The translations under genes and the position numbers were made by a program. From Escherichia phage UE-S1, in the sequence record ON568341.1: a DNA stretch of 64,000 bases, one strand, 5' to 3'. Each line of letters begins with the position of its first letter. Positions within the stretch are counted from its first letter, which is position 1. The notes beneath the pieces are model-generated. The model was not told where the DNA came from, made no database searches, and saw only the letters and a list, made by a program, of their open reading frames with translations. Positions 6,001 to 51,960 of the stretch are shown one piece after another.

Positions 6001-7996
6001 TAATTTTAGTTCCTACTCCATTATTCACTAATCCCTTAGCTAAACGTTCTTCATAATCGTTGAAGTCATCAGCATAACCACTAGTGATATTCTGTTGAAT
6101 AATATCCTGAAAATGTAGAGTATAGTCTCCTTGATTAATATATATAATATTGGAGTTATATGGGTTATTTTGTAAGTTAATCGGAACTTCATATGCACCT
6201 AATTCTTTATCAGGTGTTACGGTTCTACTATAAGTTCTAATTTGAATAACAGAATCATCATCTAAATCTACCGAACTATCAAGTGTGATGCTTTGTACTT
6301 GGCCTTTTGATACATTCTTTGTATATTTTGATACATTAACACCATCGACATTAACTTCAATAATATCAGAATCATTATCTAAAACTTTTTGAGCTAATTC
6401 AAACGTATGATCATATTTTAAAATCTGAATACCATCACCACTAATCTGATGCCAGTCCAAATAAGTTTCACGTTCTGCTTTATAGTACTGATATGTTCTA
6501 TCAACTTCAATAACATATGCATACATACCATCAACAGGTTCTTTGAACACTTCCATGTCATATACAGTACTGAATACTCGATACATGTCAGTGCGTTGGA
6601 CCTGTGGAGTTTGTTTTACATATTGTTTAGAGTATTCGTTTGAACGAACCCAATCAGTTTTTAGATTCATTTTATTATTTTCATCAATAATGTTATAATA
6701 ATACAATCCACCAATTTCAACTTCAACACCAAGATGATCATATGTATAACGTTGTGATTGCAAAAAGTTTTCATAGGTGTAATAGTTATAATCACCAAGT
6801 TCAATGTTATACCCATATACACTATCAGTAGCGTAATTATAATTTATTTTAAAACCAAATAATTGTGAACCTTTAAAGTTACTGGATGGGTATGTTGTAC
6901 TATTATCTAGTTTAATCCCATTGCGATCATAAAGTTGGAATTTTGGGAAGACGTTAACACTAGGTTTAGACTGTGCACGAACCCACAAATTACCATTCCA
7001 AAACATAGAACTATTACCATATTCATTACCTTTGGTAATTAAAACAACATCTCCATCCTGTGGTTCACCACTTGGACGAGATTCTGATTCTTCATCGGGG
7101 TCTAGTGCTAAGCCATAAACACGTGTACCATCTTGCATTTTTTTAACATATACTTTATAAATCCTATTGTTTTCACCATCGTTACCAATACTAGTGAATA
7201 GAATACGCATACCATCTTGTGGAATAATACCATCAATACGAATACCACTATTGACATCTTTTTGGATAATATCTTCAGGTTTAATATTATCAGAAAAAAG
7301 TTCAACTGTACCACGGAATTTCGTACCGTAGTTAATTAGCTCAATGTTTTTATTATATTCAATAATTGGTGCACGAGCACGAATAAAACGAGCATCTTGC
7401 ATTAATTCTTCGGTCAAGATTGAACCATCTTCCAGTGTCTCACCTAAAGTATACCAAAAGTTTTGTAATGACCAAGTATTACCATTAAGTGCACCACGTT
7501 CCATGACAATGTAGTCAGGAGTAGTAATATTATAAGAGTTTTTTGTATCCCAAAGATATGAGCTAAAATTATTCATTTTATTTGGGTTAATTGCAGGTGT
7601 CCATGCGTAAAACTTACCGTTAAATAAGCGACTTTCATTATCGGTTAGTGCTCCATAATGACTCATGTACCCAACCAGATCATCATAAAATTGAATTGAA
7701 CGAATAGTCGAATCATCATTTTTAGAGACGTAAGCAGTGGACAACTGATATAGTTGTCGAGCAACAGTACTTTCGTGTAAAAAGATATTACCAGCAGCGG
7801 CTGGAGAACCCATATCACCAATATAACCGTCAACTAATTCGTTTTCAGCCGGATTAAACCATTGTTGAATAACATCATCACTGACTTTCTGAATATCTTC
7901 TAAGCCTTGCATCCACTCAGGCAATCTTTTAATAAAAAGCTTTTTCTGTACTGCTTCAGCCATCTGTGTAGGTTGAAACTTAAAATTATTAGTCAT
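1..7996 (-). CDS. Giant virion structural protein (baseplate wedge / tail-fibre-like), 3' end truncated by window edge
   Basis: Minus-strand frame read by eye from ATG at 7996-7994 (GGAG 8 nt upstream) to position 1 with no stop noticed, more than 2,660 codons. Missing from the ORF track only because its stop lies outside the window. Sits at the distal end of the baseplate module. Confidence 0.6.
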   Translation of the reverse strand, partial: MTNNFKFQPTQMAEAVQKKLFIKRLPEWMQGLEDIQKVSDDVIQQWFNPAENELVDGYIGDMGSPAAAGNIFLHESTVARQLYQLSTAYVSKNDDSTIRSIQFYDDLVGYMSHYGALTDNESRLFNGKFYAWTPAINPNKMNNFSSYLWDTKNSYNITTPDYIVMERGALNGNTWSLQNFWYTLGETLEDGSILTEELMQDARFIRARAPIIEYNKNIELINYGTKFRGTVELFSDNIKPEDIIQKDVNSGIRIDGIIPQDGMRILFTSIGNDGENNRIYKVYVKKMQDGTRVYGLALDPDEESESRPSGEPQDGDVVLITKGNEYGNSSMFWNGNLWVRAQSKPSVNVFPKFQLYDRNGIKLDNSTTYPSSNFKGSQLFGFKINYNYATDSVYGYNIELGDYNYYTYENFLQSQRYTYDHLGVEVEIGGLYYYNIIDENNKMNLKTDWVRSNEYSKQYVKQTPQVQRTDMYRVFSTVYDMEVFKEPVDGMYAYVIEVDRTYQYYKAERETYLDWHQISGDGIQILKYDHTFELAQKVLDNDSDIIEVNVDGVNVSKYTKNVSKGQVQSITLDSSVDLDDDSVIQIRTYSRTVTPDKELGAYEVPINLQNNPYNSNIIYINQGDYTLHFQDIIQQNITSGYADDFNDYEERLAKGLVNNGVGTKIIQNEASMLPLMAHTANEDIDLFEATMFMQSEYFRFINKFNTQMLRMYNENPSNFLQNSAANIVDSILTTINMGRDSSFPFYYDNVGSTSGLVRAFIPPTPQFLGILQAYVPEKATFLTAGSKPSFYNISHTGIISKAYRVINGVDKMDDVVYELENRIFNSIDNKFKDVDYVPVLNSDDLFPTPYFTKTEYSAEEKQTLLLRGYINFTASNGISNSTHDYDPSNWRTWNYTGTYYMVNGKSTEIPARGSWRAIYTDQYGTYRPATHPWEMFGFTQRPTWWNQEYEPTAVQVGERDGDVVYVYEALVTDEQGDLVPSGLWNINDTIGDSSTGTILSGDRRGQYDKYRRFGVQPFKITKTGNKTSSGVDICVVEYIAPEILGLVSGSLNHRAEPWAYGDMGDMEFTYMNTTLFAYDQMMLLYKAKPAQFANYFWDTRNDNLKEIFTGGEQFLYGDTRNRINFDKKTTVHGENNTRTIGYQMFVSDYLMYQNKNITTKYGDVVRSSNVNVGHKIGGFTKADQLTFNAKSFGLISQENQTIGLVRSNNIRDEQMSAIKITWNGSAYQIDGYDLVGAKFKYKLPVKNGRKVTLKLENRNVVHYNEWKSEASIEYGTVLNSYQEVYTFICGYGEYLKEHGWIFEDVNDGGVQQDWNTIAKDFVMWSQNSLITGEFISCTPSAANAKFGSDFGSVQSITQNNGGVWSLLDDNNQGIRQYEIETSRIGNIFTVRTLDSNKRIALLRLSLCSYEHAVIFDDKTIFGDYIYQPTYGSIQELIKMYGYITGSWTGRLQAPGFIILESGTIPSFETLVTDFQHYYDNESPVSDVQLQELSSHLIGYQSRDYLQRMISSDVSRVDFYKGFIHDKGTNQVLERVLRVSKSYDTDEYKALQEWAFKIGTYGNIDGKKNLQFKLINDQFKQQPQMVSFDENATSNGTGNNVVYFGDQGKDPRWITRPNGKFSFPMRSGRSEHIQLPDIGPVTLDEVSYTTKDFSTAYNDRISYVNGKGENPESVWMFKDGNGLWNIFELVDTNVQMVSITPIENTDIYAEQFCKVTLTDKIPLEDGDYYYFVDETNFMPDTLTVESQYYTAGEDPKVMVVPFDTSINIEFTDPATRPRLYRYVSRFTSADKRQEYIDKKYSFKAPQSTLFERPTTYDERTNITALYLNVYDPINGVIPGAAMQNVTYTSPIDPAQYNSNGELVQAWGADKVGQVWWNTSTAFYLDYTRAIYDADGNVDIDATNEYKRYNWGRLLPHSTIDVLEWVCSPVEPYNWDKYCKDVAKKNKNNNMYLPSGTALEDNYSTFLEYDSSTDSYVTKYYFWVRDTIYVPPLHTRTKSCTDIARIIKDPSQLNIPWFAPINENSFILSNMQFKVNDDTSVLTISYYMDSTEVVKHDQYQLCKEGESYNFNPLIWDSMWNSLIGQETTKSGSVINLLYPDVDNGIGSNKTWFQNVIDARRNFVESANNYYRSQNITTNSVVMEDVFNVKTTEVNPNEVSFRVLSYNNELVIAVEQDKFKENDAVILSSSGYLPNPLSTSAVYFIHFDENGYIQLMNSPANTGNVVTITLENKGEGQHKMIKQSDYVESLGTSLDMTQYWSYADWYDVGYDSKTAYIQETSLEEANTKNYQVGDIIRVTDSENIWTLYIKAQSRDSIYWKAIGRQHSTIELNDLIYADYSIHNENGSLSNREINVRKALALLKHSFDLHQSEIVFDMVKYVHVEQSVVDWVFKTSYIYIVGLEQSLVQNYSNDNLINQIVEYFEEVKPYRTKIRSQIEQKTSDDDLIKGLCNDLDPNGYIFVDGSWIKTEKDIWDYEYAQYNEVTKKWEQVGALPSDFISPHRRFQEIDIIMHYDNIQCKPNEDLANINDLINVNKKYQTNEKDSVNNYELQRYIYSFPEYNENSFDLVNAYLMQIYYPELDVTLGTAHGVNKWYKEHADDLEATDKFTATLERVYKESTHNEMFTDLRQYVQYNTLANRLKLYKDISDDKIHDAVGCGFSGLTYNDN

Positions 7997-8045: not shown

Positions 8046-8069
8046 AAAAAAGGCGTTCCGAAGAACGCC
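8046..8069 (-). terminator. Rho-independent terminator after gp6-like gene
   Basis: Hairpin GGCGTTC-cgaa-GAACGCC, followed on the minus strand by a T-run. Confidence 0.55.
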
Positions 8070-8078
8070 AGTGTAATA

Positions 8079-11000
8079 TTAAGAACCAATATTTATATTG
8101 CTTTTAGCTAATGAGTTAACTATTTGAACATTTTCTACTGATGCCGTACTCAAAAATATTTGGTCCGAACGTGATGGAATTTCAAATAGTGACCCAAATT
8201 TTGAATTTGGATTTTGTGCAACAATAACAATTGTACTAATATGTCTCCCCAATTGGGAATGTATATAAGTACACAAATCAGTGTAATAGAAACTTTCACC
8301 AAAATCCCAATTATCAACATTAAAATATTCATTTGTTAATGCAATAACATTTTGACGAATTTCATCGTCACTCATAGTACTATTTGGTAATTTAACAACT
8401 TTAAAATCAGCTTTATAGTCTTCAGCAGCACTATTGCCAAACAATGGTAGGTACTCTGCACTATGCCAAATAATACTGTCACTGATGACAATTTTTTGCT
8501 CAACATCTTTGAACATATTTTTCAATTCAACTGATGTAGGTGGTTTTGGGATACTTCCAACTGCATTATTTTTCAACCACACATCAACTTCGGTTTTATA
8601 CGAGTTAGTTAGAACATACATATCAATTAAGTTTGTTCTACTTGGATCAATGCGATTATCGTCAGGTGCATAATGTTTCCAATGGAAGTCAATACTTGTA
8701 CGAGCATTTGTTTTGACTGTGTATTGTGCAGTAACATCTTTATAACCATAGTAATCCAACTTCTGATTCTCATCAGAATTAGTACCCATGTTGTTAATTG
8801 TACGATAAAATGCGAGTTCTGGTGTAACAGTTATGGTGTCATCTGAATATGTCAAATTACTAATTAATTGACCCAAACGATCATTGTTGTTACCAACGGT
8901 TTGTTCGATGAAATAATATTTACCATCATATTTAAAACACACTAAGAATCCAGAACCTTTACTGTACAATCCACTCAATGAGTTAGAACGAATTGCATTA
9001 TTTCGTACAAATTCAGTTCTTTTATATGTATTAGGTTCAGCTAATGCTTGTTCCATCGTATAAGACCAAGATGAATCTAGAAACGTGAATGTATCATTTG
9101 GTAAAGATAGAACTGAAATAGTAAAATCATTATTTTCTTTGAATATCAAAATACCACCATATTTCAATGCATCAGTACCTGACCATTCTGGAACAATTTC
9201 TTTAAATTGGTTTGGTTCCAATGGTATACCATTACTATCTACTTTTCTAGATGTGACAATAATACGAGAGCCATCAAGATATCCATTTTCTTGCTGTATT
9301 GTATCATAAATTTGAAAATCAATATTACTCGTCAGTCCAGAATTGTTAGTACTGGTGGTGTTCGAAGATAAAATTTCAATCTTATCGCTTTGAACAGTGC
9401 CAGTACTAATATCAGTTATTTTTTTGGATGAAACAAAGTAAAATTTCACTTTATCCCCACCAACGAATATATATTCAATACCATTAGCGTCAAATTCCCA
9501 AGTTTCTGCTGTATATTTTACATTTATAACAACCAAAACTTCATGACCATTATACATAATAGTATCATCATTCGTACTTACTTCTACCGGAACCCATGCA
9601 GTTGTTTCTTTGTCATGCACAATGACAAAATCAGTTTTCTTATCCAACATTGCAGAAATAGATTGAACTTCAACGGAATCAAACCTAGTTCTATATGGTA
9701 ATATATAATCAATTGCTTGCATTCTACTTGGTACGGATGTACTTAATACATAAAACCCATTATCTAATACACTAACAATACTTGCCCATACTGTAGTGGT
9801 AGAGTTAGAAAATTTAATCAAAGTACCCACCTGATACGAGCCATATACAGTCCCAGATGAACCCAAAATTCTACCATATGTATTTGTAGTATAATTTGAA
9901 TTATATACAGGCGTCCATGATTGTTGGATTTCAATGCCAATCGTATTGGAAGGGTAAGCTTGATAGCGTTGTATTACCGCATTTTCACCAATCAATGGTT
10001 GAATATTATCAATAACAATGCTGGCATTAGTTTTTGTTGTTGGTAGTAATAGTGACCTATTAAATTTAGTATTTTCTTGATATAATGCCCCGTCATCACT
10101 AAACACATCAGTGTTTTGGTATTTTCCAGTAGGATCATTGATGTCAATAAATCTAGACTGACCACTATAAATTCTATTAATAGCTTTCGACTTAAGCACT
10201 GTATTCCCTAAACTAAGGGGTGCTATATTATAATCTTCACCATTAACAAAGCGGTTTTGTGTATAGTACATTTGTGGTGCACGTGCTTTAATCTGCTCAA
10301 TTGTCTCAGCACTTTGTGCACGATCTGATTCATATTGTAATGAAAAACGTACATCCAACGTACTAGATTCATAACTTGATTGTGTTTTAGTTCGATATGT
10401 ATACTTTACACTTTTATTTTGAATTTCTGATGTTTTAATGTTATACGTTTTACCATTACTGACGCGATACCACACGCGAAAAGTTCCACGCGGCACAACA
10501 CCACTTCTAGAATCTGGATATTTAATTGTTATTTGGTCTTTGTCACGTGTTGAAACAGCAAAAATTGTTTTTAATTGACGGTTAACCGTATTATATGCAA
10601 TACTTTCCATAGATGGTACTTTTGTCCATTTCGCACGCACAATACCATCTTCATTAATTTCTTGAACCCAAACATCAGTTTCGTTTATATTATCAACGTT
10701 TACATCTTGTATTCTATTTTCTTCACGAATATTATATTGATAATCTTGATATGTCAACGTCCCTTGTATAAAATATACAAAAAAACCAGTATTTGGTGAA
10801 CTGAATCCATTACCATCATTTTGATAGACAATATATTTTTGTTCTTGCGGTTCTGGGTGACGTTCCTCAACACCAACGGATGTAATGTCAGGGTTTACCA
10901 CTTCAAATGTCATAGATTCACCATTTACTGTTGCAACAAATGGTATACTTGGTGCAGTCATTGGAATTGTATTCATCCTATACAATTGTCGAGATACACC

Positions 11001-11540
11001 ATTAACATCAATACGTTTAACTGGGTTACCAAATTGATTAGTACTAACAAATGAGCTATTCATAACAAGAATGAAGTTTTCATACCAATTTGCATCCATC
11101 GGGTCATTCCAACGAATAATTTTATCTTTTAGCGATTCATTGAAACTATTACGAACATCTTGGTTAGTTTTAATTTCAGTTAATTTAGCAACTGCACGAC
11201 CAGGATAAGAACGGCGTGGTGCATAAGAAATCATTTTAGCTAGTTTTAGAACTGATGCACGACGTGTTGCAGTATCTAAAAAGTTTTCACGTGTGTTTAA
11301 ATCCATACGAAATGCCAAGTTCTGTCCTAGCATAGAAATTGTATCCAGAATAAAAATGAATTGGTCATTTTCAATCCAGTCATTGAATGAATCAGGATAC
11401 GTTTGACGCAAATAATCAATCATACTCTGGCGAATAGTATCAAAATCATATGCAGTAAGATTGATTTTATAAAAACTTTCATAAACTTGAGTCCAATCTT
11501 CACCACTATATAAATTTGATTGCCTTTTTTGTTGTGACAT
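8079..11540 (-). CDS. Baseplate wedge protein, gp6/gpJ-like (1153 aa)
   Basis: Long ORF directly downstream of the gp25/gpW-like gene, matching the conserved V-W-J order of contractile-tail baseplates. Function inferred from position and size only. Confidence 0.45.
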   Translation of the reverse strand: MSQQKRQSNLYSGEDWTQVYESFYKINLTAYDFDTIRQSMIDYLRQTYPDSFNDWIENDQFIFILDTISMLGQNLAFRMDLNTRENFLDTATRRASVLKLAKMISYAPRRSYPGRAVAKLTEIKTNQDVRNSFNESLKDKIIRWNDPMDANWYENFILVMNSSFVSTNQFGNPVKRIDVNGVSRQLYRMNTIPMTAPSIPFVATVNGESMTFEVVNPDITSVGVEERHPEPQEQKYIVYQNDGNGFSSPNTGFFVYFIQGTLTYQDYQYNIREENRIQDVNVDNINETDVWVQEINEDGIVRAKWTKVPSMESIAYNTVNRQLKTIFAVSTRDKDQITIKYPDSRSGVVPRGTFRVWYRVSNGKTYNIKTSEIQNKSVKYTYRTKTQSSYESSTLDVRFSLQYESDRAQSAETIEQIKARAPQMYYTQNRFVNGEDYNIAPLSLGNTVLKSKAINRIYSGQSRFIDINDPTGKYQNTDVFSDDGALYQENTKFNRSLLLPTTKTNASIVIDNIQPLIGENAVIQRYQAYPSNTIGIEIQQSWTPVYNSNYTTNTYGRILGSSGTVYGSYQVGTLIKFSNSTTTVWASIVSVLDNGFYVLSTSVPSRMQAIDYILPYRTRFDSVEVQSISAMLDKKTDFVIVHDKETTAWVPVEVSTNDDTIMYNGHEVLVVINVKYTAETWEFDANGIEYIFVGGDKVKFYFVSSKKITDISTGTVQSDKIEILSSNTTSTNNSGLTSNIDFQIYDTIQQENGYLDGSRIIVTSRKVDSNGIPLEPNQFKEIVPEWSGTDALKYGGILIFKENNDFTISVLSLPNDTFTFLDSSWSYTMEQALAEPNTYKRTEFVRNNAIRSNSLSGLYSKGSGFLVCFKYDGKYYFIEQTVGNNNDRLGQLISNLTYSDDTITVTPELAFYRTINNMGTNSDENQKLDYYGYKDVTAQYTVKTNARTSIDFHWKHYAPDDNRIDPSRTNLIDMYVLTNSYKTEVDVWLKNNAVGSIPKPPTSVELKNMFKDVEQKIVISDSIIWHSAEYLPLFGNSAAEDYKADFKVVKLPNSTMSDDEIRQNVIALTNEYFNVDNWDFGESFYYTDLCTYIHSQLGRHISTIVIVAQNPNSKFGSLFEIPSRSDQIFLSTASVENVQIVNSLAKSNINIGS

Positions 11541-11605
11541 AATTTATTCCTTTAAATCAGTAAAGTACTAGTTCAGTACTGGGAATTATATAGAAATATT
11601 TATTC

Positions 11606-11637
11606 AAAAAGAAAAGCACTCAGAAGAGTGCTTTTTC
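11606..11637 (-). terminator. Bidirectional hairpin terminator
   Basis: GCACTC-agaa-GAGTGC stem flanked by an A-run and a T-run. Confidence 0.45.
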
Positions 11638-11641
11638 TTAG

Positions 11642-12037
11642 TTATAAAGACGATACAGAATATGTTGCCATTCTATTATTACTTCTTGCATCAAAGACTA
11701 TAGAAAGTTCTTCTACCGTATTCAATACAACGTATTGTAATACGATATTCATTTGGTATCCATATTCAATTCTTGAAATTTGTATGTTTTTAAGATTTAA
11801 GCGTGGATCTAAGCTAATAATCCTACGTGCATCTGCTTCTAAAAGGTTAATAGTATTATATCCTTCCAATTCAAACAACAAATCCCATGCAATAAACCCA
11901 TAGTCTGCATCGAATGCTCTTTCGCCTTTTTTTGTATTAAAATGATTCATCAAATCCTGACGAACCAATTCATTATCATACAACGTTTCAGTTCTACCCA
12001 CAACTGGTGTAGAGAAACCTTTGAAAACAACTGCCAT
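11642..12037 (-). CDS. gp25: Baseplate wedge protein gp25/gpW family
   Basis: 131 aa. Motif KGERAFDADYGFIAWDLLFE parallels T4 gp25 KGSRPFDPEFGCDLSDQLFE. Confidence 0.7.
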   Translation of the reverse strand: MAVVFKGFSTPVVGRTETLYDNELVRQDLMNHFNTKKGERAFDADYGFIAWDLLFELEGYNTINLLEADARRIISLDPRLNLKNIQISRIEYGYQMNIVLQYVVLNTVEELSIVFDARSNNRMATYSVSSL

Positions 12038-12050
12038 TGTCTATTTCCTT

Positions 12051-12539
12051 TTATACGGATTCGACGATACGTGCCATCTTTTCCGCTCTAGAAGTGGTTT
12101 GTTTATACCATGTACTATCACGCAATTCTTTACCAGCAGTTTTATAATCAGCTTTACCTAATGCGGACATTGCTTTTTTGAATTTCAAAACTTTGGTTTT
12201 ACCCATTTGGAATACCATCATCCACAATACACGTTGTACCTGTACTGGTGCTGTCATACCAAACTGTTCATAAATGGATTTTGCGTCATTGTACGCAGTT
12301 TGAGCATCTTTAATAAGAAGTTGGTCTGCTTGTTCTTCAGTTAAACCATTTTTGAAGTTCTCGTTGGGAAGAACTAAATGACCATAACCAATAGTATCAA
12401 GTCCGAGGCTATCTTTATATACCCAAAACTTATCATTTTTAAAATATCCAAGTTTTTTTTGATAAGAAATTGTACCTTCAAACTCTTTAATTTCTTTAAA
12501 AAACTGCTCATCTGTATTTTTAATTTCCCATTTACTCAT
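12051..12539 (-). CDS. Lysozyme (T4-lysozyme-like), free-standing
   Basis: 162 aa. Catalytic-triad context EFEG ... DSLG ... DTIGYGH matches T4 lysozyme E11/D20/T26. Paralogous to the C-terminal domain of the upstream spike protein. A TATAAATA late box lies 17 nt upstream. Confidence 0.8.
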   Translation of the reverse strand: MSKWEIKNTDEQFFKEIKEFEGTISYQKKLGYFKNDKFWVYKDSLGLDTIGYGHLVLPNENFKNGLTEEQADQLLIKDAQTAYNDAKSIYEQFGMTAPVQVQRVLWMMVFQMGKTKVLKFKKAMSALGKADYKTAGKELRDSTWYKQTTSRAEKMARIVESV

Positions 12540-12555
12540 AAAGACATCCTCATTT

Positions 12556-12563
12556 TATTTATA
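12556..12563 (-). promoter_or_regulatory. T4-type late promoter box TATAAATA
   Basis: Plus strand reads tatttata, that is TATAAATA on the minus strand, 17 nt upstream of the lysozyme start. Confidence 0.5.
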
Positions 12564-12575
12564 GTACTGAAATAT

Positions 12576-15239
12576 TTATTGACATGCCTCCAAACGTCGA
12601 GCCATTAACTCAGCACGGCGTGTCGTTTGGCGATACCAAGCCGAATTACGGATTTGTGCTGCTGCTTGTTTATAATTTCCTTTCGCTAATTCAGATAACA
12701 TTGTTTTAAATTTAAGAACTCCACCTTTGCCCATTTGAAATACCATTTGACATAGAACTTGCTGTGCCATATAAGGAGTTTTCATGTTATATGATGCATA
12801 AATTGATTTAGCATCATAAATTGCTTTACTACTATCACGAACAAGCATATCATTTGCTTGTTGTTCAGTTATACCAGAAGAAAAGTTTTCGCCATTCACG
12901 ATTAAATGACCGTAACCAATAGTTGGGTAGCCACGACTATCCAAATAACGCCAGAATTTACCATTTCGATAATACCCTTTTGCTTGTTGATATTGCATAG
13001 TACCCTCATATTCCTTTAATTCGGAAATAAATTGAGAATCACCTGGGACAATTTTCCAATCTATTGCAGTTTTATCTACATTACCGACATTATATGTTGG
13101 TTGTACAACTGGTGTAGATGATACACCACTTCTCTGTGTTCTTCTTTTACGAGGTACATGTCGTGAGCCACGCTGTGAATAACCAGTACCAATTGTTTTA
13201 ATTTTGGTAGTAACGACCAATTCATCACTATCAACGGATGGTTGTACTACTGCTTGCGGTGAAGATTGATTTGTTGCTTGACCTGCAATCAATGTTTTAT
13301 TAGCTGCATCTGCACCAATACCAGTTTGTGATGCATAAAATAATCCTGGGTCAACTGAACCACTAAAGCCGAGGACGTTAGCTGACGTTACACGTATTTC
13401 AAATTGCATAACACCATTTGCTTTACCAATGACCTGTCCCTTTTGAACTACATCCTTGTTTAGTAAATTCGTTTGAATATTATAAAATATAGATTTATAA
13501 CCAGATTTATGTTGAATCAAAATCCCACCATTAGTAATTACAACAACACCACCATCTGGTGCAACAACATCTCCTTTACATTGTATTTCCCATCCAGAAC
13601 GGTCAGTCTTTCCTCCATTTTGTGTTGGAATGCCTTTTCCCCAATAGCCGTATTGACGAATGGTCCCACTACACGGCATATACATATGCAAACCTTCATA
13701 TGTAATGCTATACCCAGTCATTCCAGTATCAGATACCATTAAATCTTGTGTTTGAACTTGTTCGGTTTCGGGTGTATAGTTCACAAACTGAATAGCTTCA
13801 GTTTCTTGAGCTTCAGGAATTTCTGGTGTAACATCATTTGCAGGCTGTGGCTGAACAGGGGATTCACTTGAAATCTTCCCCCCACCTTGTCTTGGTGGTT
13901 CAACATAACTACCATGGTTTTTCGCATCAACCCATGAAACAATGTCATGAATGTGTTCATTAAGACCAGCAGATGGTGTTCTGAAATTTGGTGCAGTAAA
14001 TTCAGCAGTACCGCTATTACCACCACTATTAACTGTTAATGTTTGACCTCCACCACTAACAATTGCTGAAGATGAACCAATTAAGTTTGCAGATGTAGAA
14101 GCAGAAATAGACGCATTTGAACCAGCAGTAATATCAGTACTGCTACCACTTTGCATACGTAAGGACGCAGCAGTGACCAGTCGAAGATCAGCACCGGAAT
14201 TAACCACAACTTGTCCACCAACTTTTGCATCAAGAGTTCCAATTAGATCTAATTTAGTATTGGCTCCTACGCGTGCATTAAAATCTTGACCCGTTTCAAT
14301 ATTATATGAACGACCAGCAGTGATGTTAATATCTTGCCCTGCACGAATATTGATATTCTTATCACAGTGCATGTCAATATCCCCTTCACCAGTAAATTTT
14401 ATACGGGCGGTCCCATCACGATTAATTAAAAGTACATCCCCCGTTGCTTCTGATAATAAAAGTTGTGCACCACTACGGGTTTTTATTACAACTCCTTCAT
14501 TTTTACGAGAACCAACACGGGTGTCGTTTACTGGGTTATTGAATTGTGTATCTTGATATCCATCTGGGTCTTGATCCCATGTGGGTGCAGTTAATTCCTC
14601 TTCGGTATAGCCATCATCAATGATGAAACTATTTCCACGTGGGGATGACATCCCATATACAGTACTCGTTGTTTGGCGAGTACTACTTCGGTTAGCAAGG
14701 CCAGCTTCTTCATCATACAAAAGGTTTTGCTTTTTAAGACCAGCAATAATTGGAACATTTGCATATTTGTCTTGCATATCAGTAGTGAGTGTGTTACGAT
14801 CATAGTCAGTAACAGGAAGAGGCATATCTGTTCCGCTATAATTACTAACATCTGTTGCCATACCAGGGACCATAGTATTCATGCGATGGTCATATACACA
14901 ACCAATCCAATACGCTTGAAATGTACGAGCCTGTGCGAAAATCACAACAACAGTGCACCCAACATCAGGCGGCACAGCCCAGAATCCATAACCTTTAGGA
15001 TACTGTCCATAAGCATCTGCACTTGGAATACCTGGTGTTTTACCAGCAAAAGGAGACATATAAGATGCCTCAATCCATGATTCTTTTGAATTTTTATCGC
15101 TTTGTGAACCTTGTATCCAAACTTTTAACTTTCCAGATTTAGTTGGATCTCTATTATCCATAACTGTTGCTAATTGTGGATAAGCTGGGTCAAAACGACC
15201 CAACTGTTGTTGTGCATACTTTTTACTTGTATCTGCCAT
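12576..15239 (-). CDS. gp5: Baseplate central spike / hub protein (gp5/gpV-like) with beta-helix, M23-like barrel and C-terminal lysozyme domain
   Basis: 887 aa. N-terminal OB-fold pattern resembles T4 gp5. Central Gly/Ser/Thr-rich repeats suggest a beta-helix needle. An M23/LytM-like segment follows. The C-terminal ~160 aa is a lysozyme domain with EYEG ... DSRG ... PTIGYGH. Confidence 0.7.
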   Translation of the reverse strand: MADTSKKYAQQQLGRFDPAYPQLATVMDNRDPTKSGKLKVWIQGSQSDKNSKESWIEASYMSPFAGKTPGIPSADAYGQYPKGYGFWAVPPDVGCTVVVIFAQARTFQAYWIGCVYDHRMNTMVPGMATDVSNYSGTDMPLPVTDYDRNTLTTDMQDKYANVPIIAGLKKQNLLYDEEAGLANRSSTRQTTSTVYGMSSPRGNSFIIDDGYTEEELTAPTWDQDPDGYQDTQFNNPVNDTRVGSRKNEGVVIKTRSGAQLLLSEATGDVLLINRDGTARIKFTGEGDIDMHCDKNINIRAGQDINITAGRSYNIETGQDFNARVGANTKLDLIGTLDAKVGGQVVVNSGADLRLVTAASLRMQSGSSTDITAGSNASISASTSANLIGSSSAIVSGGGQTLTVNSGGNSGTAEFTAPNFRTPSAGLNEHIHDIVSWVDAKNHGSYVEPPRQGGGKISSESPVQPQPANDVTPEIPEAQETEAIQFVNYTPETEQVQTQDLMVSDTGMTGYSITYEGLHMYMPCSGTIRQYGYWGKGIPTQNGGKTDRSGWEIQCKGDVVAPDGGVVVITNGGILIQHKSGYKSIFYNIQTNLLNKDVVQKGQVIGKANGVMQFEIRVTSANVLGFSGSVDPGLFYASQTGIGADAANKTLIAGQATNQSSPQAVVQPSVDSDELVVTTKIKTIGTGYSQRGSRHVPRKRRTQRSGVSSTPVVQPTYNVGNVDKTAIDWKIVPGDSQFISELKEYEGTMQYQQAKGYYRNGKFWRYLDSRGYPTIGYGHLIVNGENFSSGITEQQANDMLVRDSSKAIYDAKSIYASYNMKTPYMAQQVLCQMVFQMGKGGVLKFKTMLSELAKGNYKQAAAQIRNSAWYRQTTRRAELMARRLEACQ

Positions 15240-15252
15240 ATTTTTTTATTCC

Positions 15253-17502
15253 TTAGTCAACTATACTATCGTGACGTTTAAGTGCACGGATTACAATTGC
15301 AGCTTGAATTTGTTGTGTAAAAGAACCACCTGCACCAAAATCATGAACGATTTTATTAACACGATAAATTGTTTGATTAAACGTAGTTGGTGTATTAATA
15401 TCCAATACACCAGTGTTATCATTAATTGACACTACTGGTTGTAATTTTAATAATAGATATGCTTCAGATGTTATGTAGTTTGCTACGTGATAATCATCTG
15501 GATTAATTTCCATATCCTCACCATTAATTACTTGCTCTAGATATTGTAAGTACGAGTAATCACTCCATCCTAACCAATATGGATCACCAACTACACGCAT
15601 ATCAAGCTTGCACAAAAAAGGTCTATTGTAATAGTTGTCACGTATTTTACGTCTATCCATTTCATATGTACTACTGTTATCGTTTAGAGAAGCCGATAAC
15701 GTCGTTTCATTATTGGTTGCTTCAGTAGGCATTGTGAATACTTCACCATAACGATGTCCAATCCCATCAGTTCCTTCATCGTTTTCTTCATATGTAGTGA
15801 CATAATCTTCAATATATTGTGGTAACACATTTACTTGATAATTATTATAACGGTCTTGTTCTTCAGCGTTCCCGACCTGCATTTGGTTTTTAGCCAACGT
15901 ATCAATTTCTGACAATAAATCTTGTTGGTCTTTTGTTAACATTCCACCCATATCACGTGTTACACGCAAATCACTTGTTTTTGCCCATGCATCTGGTATA
16001 CTATTATATTGCACACCTTGTATATTCAATTCTTGTGAGTTATGTGTACCAGAATGGTTTGCCACGTCTTGAATTGGCCCTGGGTTACGGGTAGTGGCTA
16101 CGAAAAATTGTTGGTCAAATTTTAAATCCAAATCAATTATCTCACTATTAAGACCACTAAACTGATAATTATAAGTTTTTATATTCAATTTTGGTTTTTG
16201 ATCGATAGGATCTACATATTTTTCCGCATTCTCAAAGAAATATTCAAATGTGAAATTTTCTGGTTGTAAATCAGATTCATGTACAATATCACCTATCTTA
16301 AATTTAACTATATAAAAAATAACTTTATAAACTGAAGTGTTACGATAATTATCAAAACCAATATATTGTTTTATTGGTATAATATTAACAAATTGTCGTA
16401 CACTGGTGCTCTCATCTGCTTGTACTGTACAAGTATCAATAACATCATCAATAATTCTGGATATAGGAGTACTTGGGTTCCATGAAAAGTTTTTAGAACC
16501 TTGGGTTCCACTTTTAGTTGTTCCAGCTTCTGCCATTTGTTTAGAATCATAATTTATAAACAAATCTTGTAAATCAGGAGCAACTTTAAATTCAAAAAAT
16601 TTGCCATCAGATAATTCACCAAATTTATATCTAAGATACCCATATTGTTGGTCAGCCATCTGATTTAATTTATCTTCCAAATCAAAACAGAAATCACCAA
16701 AGTTTTCAGCCGTACAATTAAATGGTTCTTTAAGTGTCCATTCAATATTATCAACCAATGCTGCTCTATTATGAACTAAACTCATAGAATACATCATAGT
16801 ACTTCCACTTTGTGATGCACTAGCCGTTATACTATTAATTTTAACTGACCATCTTCGTGTTGTTTCAGGAATAATTTCAGGGATTCCATTCTTATTAAAA
16901 CCTATGAACTTTAATTCCAATATCAAAGGTAAGTCCATGAATTTATGAAATCTAAGTTTATTACTTAACGATATTAGTTCATCATATAGACTCATACTAT
17001 TATTTTCAGACATATTAAGAACAGCCGTATTGAAACAATAGTTAGTTGTCATTCCAGGTGTGGATGGTCCAGCTTGCGTCATTTGTACACTTGTGATATT
17101 ATATTTTCCACTAACACCACTTTCAGATATAACATGACGCTGCACGTCGGCATCTGGATAAAGCCAAAAATTTTTAAAATCATCCTTATCCAACGCAAAC
17201 AGACAAAAATGCCAAGTTGGATTATCATATTTTAATAGTTTGTTGTTGTATGGTATCACAAATTGACTTAAATCTAAATCTTCATAAACTTGTCCCATAC
17301 CAGCACTCTGTGATGGCAATGACTCAACATTACTAACATTTGCTTTATAGTTATTTTTTGTAATAGCTTTCACGTCATTTTGTAATGTATTAGCGGTAGC
17401 TTTCAAACTATCCAATGAATTAGATGCAGTTGTTTTTGTCTTCTTATTAATACTTGAAATATCATTTTGAAAATTATCAACTGTACTTCGTAAATCTGCC
17501 AT
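15253..17502 (-). CDS. Putative baseplate hub protein (gp27/gpD-like position)
   Basis: 749-aa ORF immediately upstream of the spike gene. Assigned by synteny only. Confidence 0.3.
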   Translation of the reverse strand: MADLRSTVDNFQNDISSINKKTKTTASNSLDSLKATANTLQNDVKAITKNNYKANVSNVESLPSQSAGMGQVYEDLDLSQFVIPYNNKLLKYDNPTWHFCLFALDKDDFKNFWLYPDADVQRHVISESGVSGKYNITSVQMTQAGPSTPGMTTNYCFNTAVLNMSENNSMSLYDELISLSNKLRFHKFMDLPLILELKFIGFNKNGIPEIIPETTRRWSVKINSITASASQSGSTMMYSMSLVHNRAALVDNIEWTLKEPFNCTAENFGDFCFDLEDKLNQMADQQYGYLRYKFGELSDGKFFEFKVAPDLQDLFINYDSKQMAEAGTTKSGTQGSKNFSWNPSTPISRIIDDVIDTCTVQADESTSVRQFVNIIPIKQYIGFDNYRNTSVYKVIFYIVKFKIGDIVHESDLQPENFTFEYFFENAEKYVDPIDQKPKLNIKTYNYQFSGLNSEIIDLDLKFDQQFFVATTRNPGPIQDVANHSGTHNSQELNIQGVQYNSIPDAWAKTSDLRVTRDMGGMLTKDQQDLLSEIDTLAKNQMQVGNAEEQDRYNNYQVNVLPQYIEDYVTTYEENDEGTDGIGHRYGEVFTMPTEATNNETTLSASLNDNSSTYEMDRRKIRDNYYNRPFLCKLDMRVVGDPYWLGWSDYSYLQYLEQVINGEDMEINPDDYHVANYITSEAYLLLKLQPVVSINDNTGVLDINTPTTFNQTIYRVNKIVHDFGAGGSFTQQIQAAIVIRALKRHDSIVD

Positions 17503-17513
17503 GTGTTACTCCA

Positions 17514-17828
17514 TTAGCCTATGTTTCGAGTACCATTAAGATAGTTTTGTACTCTTTGATTTGCTGGTATTCTAATTGTTACTCCACTTTTAAAATTATA
17601 TATAGGATCTTCTCCTAATATATCTGGATTTAACAATGCAAAAATATAATATAGACGTTCATTGCCATACATCTCGTAGGCTAAACGCCAGGGTTGATAT
17701 TCATACTTCAATGGGATCTCATAAAAATCATCAGTATCAGCAGGAACTATATCTCGTGGTAAATTATAACCAAGATACCAAGATTGTTTCACCTTAGCAT
17801 AAGGTGAGTATTGACTATAGTTGGACAT
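17514..17828 (-). CDS. Small baseplate protein with LysM-like segment (gpX/gp53-like position)
   Basis: 104 aa. A LysM-like pattern ending GVTIRIP. Position upstream of hub and spike. Confidence 0.3.
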   Translation of the reverse strand: MSNYSQYSPYAKVKQSWYLGYNLPRDIVPADTDDFYEIPLKYEYQPWRLAYEMYGNERLYYIFALLNPDILGEDPIYNFKSGVTIRIPANQRVQNYLNGTRNIG

Positions 17829-18559
17829 TAAATAAATCCTCCTTTGCGTAATAGTTCACCTCGTTTAAATGCATTGAGGTTAAACGTTTTAGTCATATAA
17901 TCAGATGTCGGTTGTTCTTCAAGTTGTAACATAACTGATATTTTTTGTGGAACCCAAACTTCATCTTGTGGATTCATATATCCAGTACTTCTAAGTTGTT
18001 CGAAGAATTTTCTACTATCCATATCGGATAAATTAAAAGTACTGTCACTACTATTCAAAGGAACTTGAATATAAGAAACATCATTAGGATATGTAAAATT
18101 ATAAGATTTTAAAATTACCGGAATATCATTATATGTGTAACGACCATATCCACTTAAAAGTAAAATTGGTGGTGGTGCACCAGCAATTGCCAATTCGGGG
18201 TTATTAGCAGATGCTGCTTGTCTACCAAAATCCATCAATGAAACCGAACGTATAAAATGAACACATGCCAATGCATACATGGCTTCTGCTGCCGTATTAG
18301 CATAAAATTCACCCTGAATAGTGAAAACCGTATTGGTGGTGTTTTTGTAATTATTATAGTTACTATTGGTATGTATAGGTGACTGTGTTTCATACTGAAT
18401 TGACCTTTGTTCAGTAATTATTGGTGTTACAGTCCAAACCAACCCATTAGTTGGACGCAGAAACGAAAGTAGTGTTGGTTCGGAGCTATCCCCGAAATCA
18501 CCATATACATAGTTAGCACCTGCGGCTTTAGGTCGTAATCGAATTCTACGATCAATCAT
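17828..18559 (-). CDS. Late structural protein (tail/baseplate), unknown function
   Basis: ORF-track frame. Start refined to ATG at 18559 (MIDRRIRL...) with GGAG 9 nt upstream. The track start at 18616 is a GTG inside the promoter region. A TATAAATA box lies upstream. Confidence 0.6.
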   Translation of the reverse strand: MIDRRIRLRPKAAGANYVYGDFGDSSEPTLLSFLRPTNGLVWTVTPIITEQRSIQYETQSPIHTNSNYNNYKNTTNTVFTIQGEFYANTAAEAMYALACVHFIRSVSLMDFGRQAASANNPELAIAGAPPPILLLSGYGRYTYNDIPVILKSYNFTYPNDVSYIQVPLNSSDSTFNLSDMDSRKFFEQLRSTGYMNPQDEVWVPQKISVMLQLEEQPTSDYMTKTFNLNAFKRGELLRKGGFI

Positions 18560-18593: not shown

Positions 18594-18601
18594 TATTTAT
18601 A
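18594..18601 (-). promoter_or_regulatory. T4-type late promoter TATAAATA
   Basis: Plus strand tatttata, about 35 nt upstream of the refined start at 18559. Confidence 0.5.
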
Positions 18602-18689: not shown

Positions 18690-19529
18690 ATGACAAATAG
18701 ACCAAAGCGTAAAAAGTATCTCAATAATGCTGATTTACTTCGTGAAATACAAAAAAGTAAGATTTCATATTGCTGGTTATTAGACAAATCATATAGTATG
18801 TATGATTATATCGTTTTTCATGAGTCAGAAATTACTGCTGAGTTACTTGAAAAAGCAAAAGCAGCACGAATTAAACGACTTAACAATGAAATGCTTGATA
18901 GTATTCGTGCAAAGGAAAATATGAGTGCTAAAAAAGCGAAAGAATATGCAGAAGAAAATAATCTAGTTATTACTGATGTTCCAATTGATGAAGTAGTTAT
19001 TCGTGTTATTACAGATGAACACATCCCACCAGATACTAGAGTTAATTTTGAACCTTTCAAACATTATATCGTAGATAATGAAGGTATTCTTTATGAAGTA
19101 TGTCGCTCTCATTGGAAAGGTGACCTTGAATCTGGGGAATTTAGTACTGTTCATGGTAAAATAACAAATGAACTAGGGAAAATGTTCATTAAACTAGCAG
19201 AGGAAATCTCACATAAATCTAACTATAGAAACTATACATACTTAGATGAAATGATGGGTGATGCAAGAATACAATTAGTTAAAAATGCACTTCTCTTTAA
19301 AGAGAGTATTCTTTATAAAAAAGACAAACCCGCTGTACAACTAAATCCTTTCTCTTACTATACATCATTCGTAAACAATAGTTTTCGTTCAATTTTGAAT
19401 AGTGAGAAAAATGTTCGAAATATACGTGATGATTTACTTGAAATGCATGGCTTTACACCATCACATACACGTCAAATTGAAATTGAATTGAACATGATTG
19501 AAAGGAAAAATGAAGATGGCACTGTTTGA
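18690..19529 (+). CDS. gp55: Late-transcription sigma factor gp55
   Basis: N-terminus RPKRKKYLNNADLLREI parallels T4 gp55 KPKYNYVNNKELLQAI. C-terminal blocks LGKMFIKLAEEISHKSNYRNYT and NPFSYYTSFVNNSFRSIL parallel T4 [22 protein letters not shown] and NPHAYITQACFNAFVQRI. Start refined to ATG 18690. About 90 aa longer than T4 gp55. Confidence 0.75.
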   Translation: MTNRPKRKKYLNNADLLREIQKSKISYCWLLDKSYSMYDYIVFHESEITAELLEKAKAARIKRLNNEMLDSIRAKENMSAKKAKEYAEENNLVITDVPIDEVVIRVITDEHIPPDTRVNFEPFKHYIVDNEGILYEVCRSHWKGDLESGEFSTVHGKITNELGKMFIKLAEEISHKSNYRNYTYLDEMMGDARIQLVKNALLFKESILYKKDKPAVQLNPFSYYTSFVNNSFRSILNSEKNVRNIRDDLLEMHGFTPSHTRQIEIELNMIERKNEDGTV

Positions 19530-24067: not shown

Positions 24068-24276
24068 TAGTGCTTCTCGTTTTGTTTTTTAATTTTTTTA
24101 TTAAAAGACTTAACTAATAAGTCTCTATCTATTAATGGCATATTAAGAAGTGTTCCGTAATCAATATTATCCATATACACAGAACACTCCATTAGTGCAT
24201 TTTTGATTTCTGACTTATTCAGTTCTATCTCCTTCAGTACTTCTTGTATTTCTTCAGGAGATGACTGGAGAAGCAT
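24067..24276 (-). CDS. Small hypothetical protein (69 aa)
   Basis: ORF abutting the upstream 278-aa gene (stop and start overlap), followed by a terminator. Confidence 0.45.
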   Translation of the reverse strand: MLLQSSPEEIQEVLKEIELNKSEIKNALMECSVYMDNIDYGTLLNMPLIDRDLLVKSFNKKIKKQNEKH

Positions 24277-25112
24277 TACTCGAAAAAATGACTAGGATCA
24301 TATTTTAGTCCATCAATTTCCCATTGATGATTACATCCATCACACTCAACTTCCATACTATGCGATACTCCAATTTCAAGTACTTCATCCATTTTTTCAC
24401 GAATTAGTTTAAGAACTCCTTTTGATTGTTGTCCAAGCCACTCATTAATGAATTCTTTTTCAACTACTTCATCACCATCTGGAGTGATGATTTTTGCAAT
24501 AACTCCACCAATCATATCAAAGTTTAGTTGTGCCATATTTTCAAATACTTCAGAAAATATTTTTACTTTTTCGTCTTGTTCAATCTCAGCAGTTTCTAGA
24601 AACTTAGTTTTCTGCTGCTCACTGAACATACGCTCAGCAAACGATGAATATTCTTTCCATGTTAGTGGTCTAAACTCTAAACGTAGTCCATTATCTAAAT
24701 CAATAGATGGGATTTCTTCGAATGCTTGTGCAGTTTCAAGAAGATATGATAGATTACGTTCAAAACGACCTTCTTTTTCACATTCAGGACATACAGCGTT
24801 AATATCATATGTTTCTTCTTTAGATGCAACTTTAATAGCAATAAGAAGCATTTCAACGTCATTTACATATAACTCATCAGCATCAATAACATTAGGAACA
24901 CAGTTTTCAATGACACGTGATACTGCATCGCCGTTTAGTAACATATCTGGTGTATTGAGTGTCATTTCATCACGTGCACTACGTGCACAAACGCCACATT
25001 TGACACCTTTTGGACCTAAAACTCCGTCTTTATAAGGAATAATGCCGTTAGTAACTAATTTTGTACTGATCTCTTCAATTTTAGTGTACTTAGCAAGTGG
25101 ATTCATAGCCAT
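24276..25112 (-). CDS. Late protein with three CxxC zinc-ribbon motifs, unknown function
   Basis: 278 aa. CGVCARS, CPECEKEG and CDGCNHQWE motifs. GGAG RBS. TATAAA-like late boxes in the divergent region. Confidence 0.7.
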   Translation of the reverse strand: MAMNPLAKYTKIEEISTKLVTNGIIPYKDGVLGPKGVKCGVCARSARDEMTLNTPDMLLNGDAVSRVIENCVPNVIDADELYVNDVEMLLIAIKVASKEETYDINAVCPECEKEGRFERNLSYLLETAQAFEEIPSIDLDNGLRLEFRPLTWKEYSSFAERMFSEQQKTKFLETAEIEQDEKVKIFSEVFENMAQLNFDMIGGVIAKIITPDGDEVVEKEFINEWLGQQSKGVLKLIREKMDEVLEIGVSHSMEVECDGCNHQWEIDGLKYDPSHFFE

Positions 25113-33616: not shown

Positions 33617-33645
33617 TTGACAGTACTTAACAATTGTAGTATCAT
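33617..33645 (+). promoter_or_regulatory. Sigma70-like promoter (TTGACA-N17-TATCAT)
   Basis: Canonical -35 TTGACA at 33617-33622 and -10 TATCAT at 33640-33645. Confidence 0.45.
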
Positions 33646-33679
33646 ACGTGTAAATAAAGAAAAGAACTCGGAGAAAATC

Positions 33680-45699: not shown

Positions 45700-51960
<6,261 letters not shown>

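Follow-up and report, generated by a model that had tools for sequence, protein, structure and literature searches.

Does a contiguous block of baseplate genes, found in a phage whose head and replication genes are of T4 type, come from a P2- or Mu-like tail, or is it native to the phage's own lineage? The block lies in a 64,000-nucleotide stretch of Escherichia phage UE-S1 (ON568341.1), the whole of which is referred to below as the window. A preliminary description had read it as small LysM-like protein, putative hub, gp5-like spike, lysozyme, gp25/W, gp6/J-like protein and giant distal protein, and had likened this order to P2/Mu-type tails more than to T4. The region very probably holds the late genes for the inner baseplate (hub and wedge core) of a jumbo myovirus from the Asteriusvirus or "Rak2-like" group, as a cassette in which a contiguous order has been retained and nothing has been imported from P2 or Mu.

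Gene order and conservation

Read from the sequence, the minus-strand series of open reading frames encodes proteins of 243, 104, 749, 887 and 162 aa, gp25, a protein of 1153 aa and a giant protein (Table 1). Gene order, its conservation, and a family or fold for six of the eight products are established here. The 243-aa frame, which heads the cassette, was absent from the earlier gene list, and the stop of its gene overlaps the start of the 104-aa gene; the baseplate order given in that list is borne out by the coordinates together with the family and fold assignments. The giant protein does follow the gp6-like gene, though outside the interval 8079-18559 to which the description had confined the series. 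All 18 related IMG/VR loci, in which hub identity falls as low as 43%, share this order, as do four far more distant loci; chance does not account for it. Spike, gp25, gp6-like protein and P0061 also occur in this order on a contig recorded as part of a cyanobacterial MAG.

Table 1. Features of the window discussed in the text.
Feature	Position	Strand	Basis or remark
243-aa virion protein	17828..18559	-	phrog_12050, virion structural protein
104-aa gp53-like protein	17514..17828	-	Pfam PF11246 (Phage_gp53), phrog_7145, phrog_232
749-aa probable central baseplate hub	15253..17502	-	gp27 / Mu gp44 / P2 gpD / VgrG N-terminal fold
887-aa spike	12576..15239	-	OB domain PF04717, DUF2345 beta-helix, GH24 lysozyme
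162-aa free GH24 lysozyme	12051..12539	-	Pfam PF00959
131-aa gp25/gpW/TssE-type sheath initiator	11642..12037	-	PF04965, E 8.6e-9
1153-aa enlarged gp6-type wedge protein	8079..11540	-	phrog_219 (T4 gp6 family), E 2e-19
Giant virion protein	2..7996	-	open frame from 8023/7996 to base 2, runs off window
278-aa gp26-like baseplate hub protein	24276..25112	-	outside cassette; PF12322 T4_baseplate 1.1e-23; phrog_150
gp55-like late sigma factor gene	18690..19529	+	phrog_12791, phrog_234, PBECO4 annotation
TATAAATA, T4-type late-promoter-like motif	18594..18601	-	34 nt upstream of first cassette gene
TATAAATA motif	12556..12563	-	16 nt upstream of lysozyme gene
TATAAATA motif	8090-8097		just upstream of hairpin 8052..8069
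Terminator-like hairpin and T-run	11612..11635	-	immediately 3' of gp25
Terminator-like hairpin	8052..8069	-	3' of gp6-like gene
Portal	27460-29199		follows 734-aa virion protein
Terminase	47965-50625		
gp32	52137-53189		

The window is syntenic with the Asteriusvirus jumbo phages ph0011, PBECO4 and 121Q at an identity of about 89%; against ph0011/PBECO4, nucleotide identity is 82-89%. Genes, order and sizes are as in the window in the Rak2-like clusters PBECO4 gp531-538, 121Q, phAPEC6 gp238-245, CBB_236-243, RaK2 and GAP32, which differ from it in species-level sequence; the cluster belongs to giant phages of E. coli that form a known group, the PBECO4/121Q relatives, and the gene block is an ordinary one. 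A 2017 listing for the CBB cluster already names the T4 homologues gp6, gp25, gp5 and gp53, and CBB_236, 237 and 240-243 were found in virions by mass spectrometry (PMC5259590), as were phAPEC6 gp238-241, 244 and 245 (PMC7247149). Homologues of the 243-aa protein (gp238), the spike (gp241), the 1153-aa protein (gp244) and the giant protein (gp245, 382 kDa) are thus among the phAPEC6 virion proteins; the free lysozyme was not found by mass spectrometry of phAPEC6 and CBB virions.

Assignment of the cassette proteins

The functional assignments of the preliminary description hold by Pfam, PHROG, phmmer and fold comparison. Its "LysM-like small protein" corresponds to the 104-aa product, which matches Pfam Phage_gp53 (E 1.2e-4, with 22.3 bits where the cutoff is 21) over only about 45 residues, the part called LysM-like in the literature. 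Matches to gp53 of T4 (5e-4) and KVP40 (1.3e-8) in phmmer, and a value of 32% in hhalign, suggest a shortened gp53-like version that keeps the LysM-like part. The "gp25/W" protein matches T4 gp25 (3.6e-7) and cyanophage gp25 (5.6e-11) and is nearer to T4 gp25 (hhalign probability 94.6%) than to P2 W (37.8%) or Mu gp46 (0.1%). For the "gp6/J-like" protein, the first half of the name stands and the second does not: it matches phrog_219, TIGR02243 (8.5e-4) and cyanophage gp6 (phmmer 1.3e-11, residues 27-127 and 375-441), not phrog_6, the P2 J/Mu gp47 family.

The gp5-like spike was correctly named: an OB fold (residues 23-116) precedes a beta-helix (about 257-450), a weak M23-like region (549-608) and a C-terminal GH24 lysozyme (765-882), the last of T4 gp5 type by sequence comparison. 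The separate lysozyme gene is likewise real, and its 53% identity with spike residues 728-886 identifies the product, on sequence grounds, as paralogous to the C-terminal domain of the spike. For the 749-aa protein, sequence similarity to gp27, gp44 or gpD was looked for and none was found; its fold, in a model of moderate confidence (pLDDT 64.6), points to the central hub, so that the putative hub of the preliminary description is supported by fold and not by sequence. Records of relatives that were examined carry only generic labels for this gene ("virion structural protein", "structural protein", "hypothetical"), which is here assigned to the hub fold.

These assignments bear on the origin towards which the preliminary description leaned, horizontal gain of a P2/Mu-type baseplate module by a phage whose head and replication core are of T4 type. 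The gene adjacency shared with Mu 44-45-46-47 and the hub's match to Mu gp44 by fold would fit such a gain, as would a spike whose OB domain and helix match the general PF04717 and VgrG-type DUF2345 models and not T4-specific gp5 models. However, Foldseek ranked T4 gp27 above Mu gp44, and the proteins assignable by sequence (gp6, gp25, gp53 and the gp5 lysozyme domain) are all of T4 type, closest to the T4 family and not to P2 J, W or X or to Mu gp46 or gp47. G+C over the cassette (0.31-0.38) lies within the window's range, with no sharp change at the borders. Together with the gene orders compared below, this largely refutes a transferred module, which we regard as extremely improbable.

Two products are placed by position. 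KVP40 has gp48, the tube initiator or cap, where the window has its 243-aa protein, and the fEgEco12 record, from a study whose methods include BLASTP and HHpred, labels the homologue gp48; profile and hhalign comparisons of the 243-aa protein with gp48 and gp54 were both negative, and it is a putative gp48 equivalent by position, homology being unproven. The giant protein (at least 2665 aa within the window; 3333 aa in PBECO4) occupies the position of gp7 in T4 and KVP40, a likewise unproven positional equivalence. Its N-terminal domain of about 450 aa is widespread (1293 representative clusters) and defines a large family of proteins of 3-7 kaa, consistently encoded directly after a gp6-like gene in the loci examined. 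Even with a 180-sequence profile, this domain resembled neither gp7 nor P2 I nor Mu gp48, and its AF2 model (pLDDT 42) was too poor to use.

Neighbouring genes and expression signals

The cassette is incomplete: the gp26-like gene (27% against T4 gp26 in hhalign) and a candidate for the tape measure are found 5.7 kb from it, beyond homologues of gp55, 47, 46 and 49. The portal does neighbour a 734-aa gene, as had been claimed; terminase and gp32, said to be adjacent, are close but separated by one 433-aa virion gene. Shuffled topologies of core genes are a known trait of T4-related phages (PMC2993671). Such variety, the rearranged neighbourhoods of the window (terminase near gp32, the gp26-like gene apart from gp25) and an Ackermannviridae phage with gp5 and gp25 adjacent and gp6 elsewhere would suit a contiguous order that is not ancestral, re-clustered independently in Rak2-like and KVP40-like lineages under selection to express interacting baseplate parts together. 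Against this, the order 48-53-x-5-25-6-x is identical in two very distant T4 relatives and recurs in Mu and extracellular contractile injection systems (eCIS), so that retention is simpler than repeated convergence; re-clustering is accordingly thought unlikely, with the reservation that ancestral retention is an argument from parsimony over few genomes.

T4-type late promoter motifs are present, and a gp55-like sigma gene adjoins the cassette, divergent from it across a 130-bp intergenic region. Of the ten TATAAATA sites in the window, seven precede a gene start on their own strand by 16-66 nt (binomial p ~8e-9); the motif is not over-represented (10 against 11.8 expected), and only its placement is non-random.

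In the baseplate that we propose, the 243-aa protein would probably take the tube-initiator position and the 104-aa protein act as a short gp53-like, LysM-type clamp. By analogy with T4, Mu and eCIS structures, a hub trimer would cap the tube and bear a trimer of the gp5-type spike with its predicted cell-wall hydrolase domains, the 162-aa protein being a possible spare lysozyme; a (gp6)2-X wedge core would be bound by the gp53-like protein and gp25, and the giant protein may supply the third chain or a peripheral part of each wedge. Late expression would proceed from TATAAATA promoters. Counted against this retained-cassette reading are the hub's lack of sequence similarity, the KVP40 hub-position gene, the links of the 243-aa and giant proteins, the outlying gp26-like gene and tape-measure candidate, and the motif's ordinary frequency.

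Comparison with other contractile tails

The X-D-V-W-J-I-H cassette invoked in the preliminary description does not exist as such, because P2 carries X, V-W-J-I-H-G and D in three separate operons. Within P2, V-W-J-I-H is contiguous and W is weakly similar to the window's gp25, but J belongs to another PHROG family than the gp6-like protein. What survives of the proposed P2/Mu-type order is its match to Mu 44-45-46-47, with the same hub-spike-gp25-gp6 adjacency, and to eCIS. Mu genes 43-49 show no sequence affinity, the window's families not detecting Mu gp46 or gp47; the Mu baseplate proteins are minimal in size, unlike those of the window, and in Mu the tape measure immediately precedes the cassette, whereas the window's candidate lies elsewhere.

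The eCIS baseplate module (Afp/PVC genes 7-12) has the conserved synteny LysM-VgrG(gp27+gp5)-PAAR-gp25-Baseplate_J-P2_I (PMC4122934), and its tube initiator Pvc7 has a LysM-like domain like T4 gp53 (PMC12546770), paralleled in the window by the adjoining 243-aa and 104-aa genes. The window differs in encoding hub and spike separately, in having no PAAR gene in the cassette and in ending on the giant protein, in which P2_I similarity is not detectable.

T4 shares with the window the gp53, gp5 (lysozyme), gp25, gp6 and gp26 families, the TATAAATA late motif, a gp55-type sigma factor and the sub-order 53-5-6-(7), but splits its genes between 53-5-6-7 and, about 37 kb away, 25-26/51-27-28-29-48-54. 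T4 gp5 is reported by Kanamaru and colleagues (2002) to have the domain order OB-lysozyme-helix, against OB-helix-...-lysozyme in the window's spike. The "dispersed T4 arrangement" is true of T4; it fits T-even phages and not T4 relatives at large, because KVP40 has the cassette order and a cyanophage has gp25, gp6 and a 6064-aa virion protein in series.

KVP40 (Straboviridae; KVP40.0332-0342) reads gp48-gp53-[423-aa tail protein]-gp5-5.1-PAAR-..-gp25-gp6-gp7, as in the window, and homology to the window's proteins is detectable for its gp53, gp25, gp6 and gp5. Its gene in the hub position, that of the 423-aa tail protein, is itself unassigned. KVP40 differs in keeping 5.1, a PAAR gene and recognisable gp7 and gp8; in a gp5 that lacks a lysozyme domain according to its record's note, where the window has a free lysozyme; and in a gp6 about half the size of the window's, in which the giant protein replaces gp7. 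Since the hub-spike-gp25-gp6 order is standard for contractile tails and present in KVP40, it is ordinary here and not a P2/Mu-type graft. The contiguous order would be the one that contractile injection systems commonly have, kept in this lineage as in KVP40, and the split of T4, itself the outlier in baseplate gene order, a probably derived state.

Organization and Conservation of the Baseplate Cassette

The baseplate cassette of UE-S1 consists of seven close-packed ORFs and an eighth, giant open frame that continues past the left edge of the window (see table). The preliminary description had read a seven-part baseplate order on the minus strand (LysM-like small protein, putative hub, gp5-like spike, lysozyme, gp25/W, gp6/J-like, giant distal protein), and this order is borne out. 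Its seven names correspond to ORFs two to eight, so that the 243-aa ORF was left unnamed; the interval to which it had assigned them (8079–18559) does hold seven ORFs, but the giant protein falls outside it.

Features of the window discussed in the text
Feature	Coordinates	Strand	Remarks
Giant virion protein	2–7996	minus	eighth open frame, at least 2665 aa; start 8023/7996; runs off left end of window
Seven close-packed ORFs	8079–18559	minus	243, 104, 749, 887, 162, 131, and 1153 aa
Free GH24 lysozyme, 162 aa	12051–12539	minus	directly after spike gene; own T4-type late promoter motif, TATAAATA
Spike, 887 aa	12576–15239	minus	OB (PF04717), DUF2345 β-helix, weak M23-like stretch, C-terminal GH24 lysozyme
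gp55-like late sigma gene	18690–19529		divergent neighbor of cassette across 130 bp
gp26-like hub protein	24276–25112	minus	PF12322, 1e-23; divergent neighbor of 734-aa gene
734-aa gene	25244–27448	plus	next to portal gene
552-aa ORF	33617–35275	plus	DUF7487 and weak REase_MTES_1575 match; between major capsid gene and next gene
Large terminase ORF, 886 aa	47965–50625	plus	LAGLIDADG/Hom_end and intein-splicing matches at ~residues 121–429

The 10.5-kb region aligns at 100% coverage and 82–89% nucleotide identity with more than 25 jumbo coliphage and Salmonella phage genomes, including ph0011, PBECO4, 121Q, phAPEC6, G17, and fEgEco12. Over the parts of the window compared, PBECO4 and fEgEco12 are syntenic with it gene for gene, and identity and gene order relative to PBECO4, 121Q, and ph0011 place it in the Asteriusvirus/Rak2-like baseplate cluster. 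A 99%-identical hub protein was found in a Logan assembly only; together with the nucleotide identity and the synteny, this marks the window, at the level of sequence, as a new species-level relative of the well-known Asteriusvirus or "Rak2-like" group.

The order 243-104-hub-spike-lysozyme-gp25-gp6-giant is the same in 18 of 18 IMG/VR loci that encode a relative of the hub, down to 43% identity. The cassette, lacking the free lysozyme, is also found in four far more distant contigs (23–36% identity in the N-terminal part of the giant protein), where genes for gp25, a 1269–1481-aa gp6-like protein, and the giant protein follow one another in all four, with the spike upstream in three, the hub as well in two, and the complete upstream set beginning with the 243-aa gene in one. 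Homologues of the 243-, 104-, 749-, 887-, and 1153-aa proteins and of the giant protein have been detected by mass spectrometry in virions of phAPEC6 and CBB (PMC7247149; PMC5259590), and most T4 homologues of the cassette were already published in 2017 (PMC5259590).

Assignment of the Wedge and Tube Proteins

Comparison of the cassette families with T4, Mu, and P2 reference proteins by phmmer, hmmsearch, and hhalign gave signal only for gp53, the gp5 lysozyme, gp25, gp26, and, weakly, gp6; PDB sequence and profile searches with the 749-, 1153-, and 243-aa families returned nothing relevant. The 104-aa protein is gp53-like by its matches to Pfam Phage_gp53 (22.3 bits against a cutoff of 21, over only ~45 residues at profile positions 47–86), T4 gp53 (5e-4), and KVP40 gp53 (1.3e-8), and is half as long as T4 gp53. 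The canonical LysM Pfam model is not matched by this protein; a LysM-like domain has been described in gp53, the eCIS tube initiator Pvc7, and the pyocin glue protein (PMC12546770), and with the gp53 matches this makes "LysM-like small protein" a fair description.

The 131-aa protein is a sheath initiator of the gp25/gpW/TssE type (PF04965, 35.5 bits against a gathering cutoff of 27.2), and hhalign with its family gave 94.6% for T4 gp25, 37.8% for P2 W, and 0.1% for Mu gp46. Homology to the gp6 N-terminal core places the 1153-aa protein among the gp6/gpJ/TssF wedge proteins. It matched phrog_219 (E 2e-19), which a PHROG cross-check identified as the T4 gp6 family (T4 gp6 itself, 1e-216), with P2 J and Mu gp47 in phrog_6; it also matched KVP40 gp6 (2.4e-5) and a cyanophage gp6 (1.3e-11) that in turn matches T4 gp6 (9.5e-27). 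No Pfam match of any kind was obtained for it at E ≤ 0.1.

The 243-aa gene occupies the position of gp48 in KVP40, and the fEgEco12 record names its homologue gp48; the methods of the fEgEco12 paper list BLASTP and HHpred. Sequence and profile tests of the 243-aa protein against gp48/gp54, including hhalign to T4 and KVP40 gp48, were negative, and an attempt at a gp48 profile from IMG/VR yielded near-identical T-even sequences only.

Assignment of the Hub and Spike

The 749-aa protein gave no Pfam, NCBIfam, or PDB sequence or profile match, curated hub families included, and hhalign of its family against the hub references (T4 gp27, Mu gp44, and P2 gpD) gave 0.2%. The family comprises 57 clusters, all with at least 41% identity, and is confined to Rak2-like phages. 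An AlphaFold2 model built with 26 homologues (pLDDT 64.6, pTM 0.65) matched T4 gp27 (1k28_D, E 8e-6) and Mu gp44 (8e-4) in Foldseek; the predicted model has the gp27-type fold common to T4 gp27, Mu gp44, P2 gpD, and the N-terminal part of VgrG. By fold only, these matches support and strengthen the earlier call of a putative hub, and the "virion structural protein" of this size in Rak2-like phages may now be annotated as a predicted baseplate hub.

In KVP40 the hub position, between gp53 and gp5, is held by KVP40.0334, a 423-aa "tail protein" (KVP40 locus L065, 1227–2498; phrog_350), for which phmmer, PHROG, and PDB searches found no similarity to T4 gp27, the window hub, or PDB sequences; it may be another fold-only hub.

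The 887-aa protein begins with an OB domain followed by a β-helix, as do the gp5/gpV/VgrG spikes. The domain order of T4 gp5 is OB, lysozyme, β-helix. In the 887-aa spike the order is OB, β-helix, M23-like, GH24, which puts the lysozyme (residues 765–882) past the helix and the weak M23-like region, unlike gp5 sensu stricto, where it precedes the helix; this layout is like that of "evolved" VgrG spikes, whose effector domains are C-terminal. PAAR, present in T4 (5.4) and KVP40, has no gene in the window cassette. The free lysozyme is 53% identical to the C-terminal domain of the spike. Mass spectrometry of phAPEC6 and CBB virions did not detect homologues of this lysozyme (PMC7247149; PMC5259590), and its gene is absent at L088, one of the four distant loci, which encodes a shorter spike of 686 aa.

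The Giant Protein Downstream of gp6

The ~450 N-terminal residues of the giant virion protein form a domain that defines a very large family. At 50% identity the family contains at least 1293 clusters (689 with E ≤ 1e-30); the proteins carry the domain at the N-terminus, and their length has a median of 3682 aa and reaches 7307 aa (at least 3000 aa in 114 of the best 148). A word-indexed homologue search with the N-terminal region returned 4–6 relatives only. In every locus examined (the window, the 18 and four related loci, and two metagenomic contigs), the giant gene is directly downstream of a 1150–1480-aa gp6-like gene, which is the position of gp7 in T4 and KVP40 and of gp48 in Mu. Similarity to gp7 or Tail_P2_I was not found: hhalign of the N-terminal domain, with shallow and 180-sequence profiles, gave 0.0–0.3% against a T4, KVP40, and cyanophage gp7 alignment, P2 I, and Mu gp48, and hmmsearch was also negative, as was hhalign against T4 gp6, gp8, gp9, and gp10. 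An AlphaFold2 model of residues 1–520 from a 6-sequence alignment (pLDDT 42) was too poor for fold comparison.

We put forward tentatively, as a rather unlikely reading, that this N-terminal domain represents an undescribed, non-gp7 completion of the wedge: across a large clade comprising T4 relatives and other big phages, a protein of 3–7 kaa would have replaced gp7, its N-terminal domain docking on an enlarged gp6 (Pfam DUF8360 by precomputed annotation). Within the locus, only this domain could to some degree be called novel, and the giant protein, as a member of a very large, uncharacterised family, is worth a structural look.

In cyanophage S-MbCM100 (locus L067, 11342 onward), a 6064-aa virion protein is encoded directly after gp25-gp6. 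It was rejected as a carrier of the giant N-terminal domain, since it has only internal repeat domains in common with some members of the giant family.

Predicted Late Transcription

The T4-type late promoter motif TATAAATA occurs at 10 sites in the window against 11.8 expected, and thus shows no overall enrichment; 7 of the 10 precede a gene start on the same strand by 16–66 nt (placement p ~8e-9), in most cases that of a virion gene. Among these are the sites at 18594, 12556, and 8090, which precede the 243-aa gene by 34 nt, the lysozyme gene by 16 nt, and the giant gene by 66 nt, respectively. Both features of T4-type late genes, the upstream motif and a phage-encoded gp55-type sigma factor, are present in the sequence. 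One terminator-like hairpin is located behind gp25 and another behind the gp6-like gene. The cassette has 60 matches to σ70-like promoters, which is about the background number (56 expected). The cassette is likely transcribed late, in T4 style, in a few units.

Other Genes in the Window

The 734-aa gene beside the portal gene, left without a function in the preliminary description, encodes a virion protein that the fEgEco12 record labels pb2-like. A protein of 734 aa would, at 0.15 nm per residue, extend ~110 nm, near the reported tail lengths of 94–123 nm, which makes this virion protein a tape-measure candidate. This gene and its gp26-like neighbor are 5.7 kb from the cassette, behind homologues of gp55, gp47, gp46, and gp49. 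The insertion in the large terminase ORF is an intein; the PBECO4 annotation shows this region as a 545-aa terminase and a separate upstream ORF. No gene is present in PBECO4 at the position of the 552-aa ORF, which is probably a mobile nuclease-type insertion.

Gene Order and Lineage

The cassette order had been likened to an X-D-V-W-J-I-H cassette of P2/Mu-type tails and set against T4. No such contiguous cassette exists in P2 (NC_001895), where these genes lie in three operons: X at 6.5 kb in the O operon, V-W-J-I-H-G at 10.3–15.3 kb in the V operon, and D, last in the F operon, at 22.8 kb. The Mu genes are contiguous [tape measure-43-44(hub)-45(spike)-46-47-48-fibre], and those of T4 are found at 77–92 kb (53-5-5.1-segC-5.3-5.4-6-7-8...) and at 115–123 kb (25-26/51-27-28-29-48-54). 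KVP40 (Straboviridae) has the same order as the window cassette [gp48-gp53-(423-aa "tail protein")-gp5-5.1-PAAR-(two genes)-gp25-gp6-gp7-gp8]; S-MbCM100 has gp25-gp6 and its 6064-aa protein, and an Ackermannviridae phage has gp5 and gp25 adjacent, with gp6 elsewhere. A conserved LysM-VgrG-PAAR-gp25-BaseplateJ-P2_I synteny has been described in eCIS by Sarris et al. (PMC4122934), and multiple core-gene topologies among T4 relatives by Petrov et al. (PMC2993671). Given the KVP40 order, the eCIS synteny, these multiple topologies, and the lack of such a cassette in P2, the order in the window is the general one for contractile tails, and the split in T4 is the exception among T4 relatives. The P2/Mu-like reading therefore holds in part as a description, since the order resembles those of Mu and eCIS rather than that of T4 proper, but its contrast between "P2/Mu tails" and "T4 phages" fails.

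A horizontal acquisition of the cassette from P2/Mu would fit that Mu-like order and was rejected on several grounds. The proteins are T4-type wherever the sequence carries signal (gp25, gp6, which is not of the J family, gp53, the gp5 lysozyme, and the PF12322 gp26-like protein); Foldseek ranked T4 gp27 above Mu gp44 for the hub; and G+C content shows no break across the cassette borders. These make a P2/Mu module swap very unlikely. For the question raised by the preliminary description the locus has little consequence: it belongs to a well-sampled group, and hub-spike-gp25-gp6 contiguity is the norm for contractile tails.
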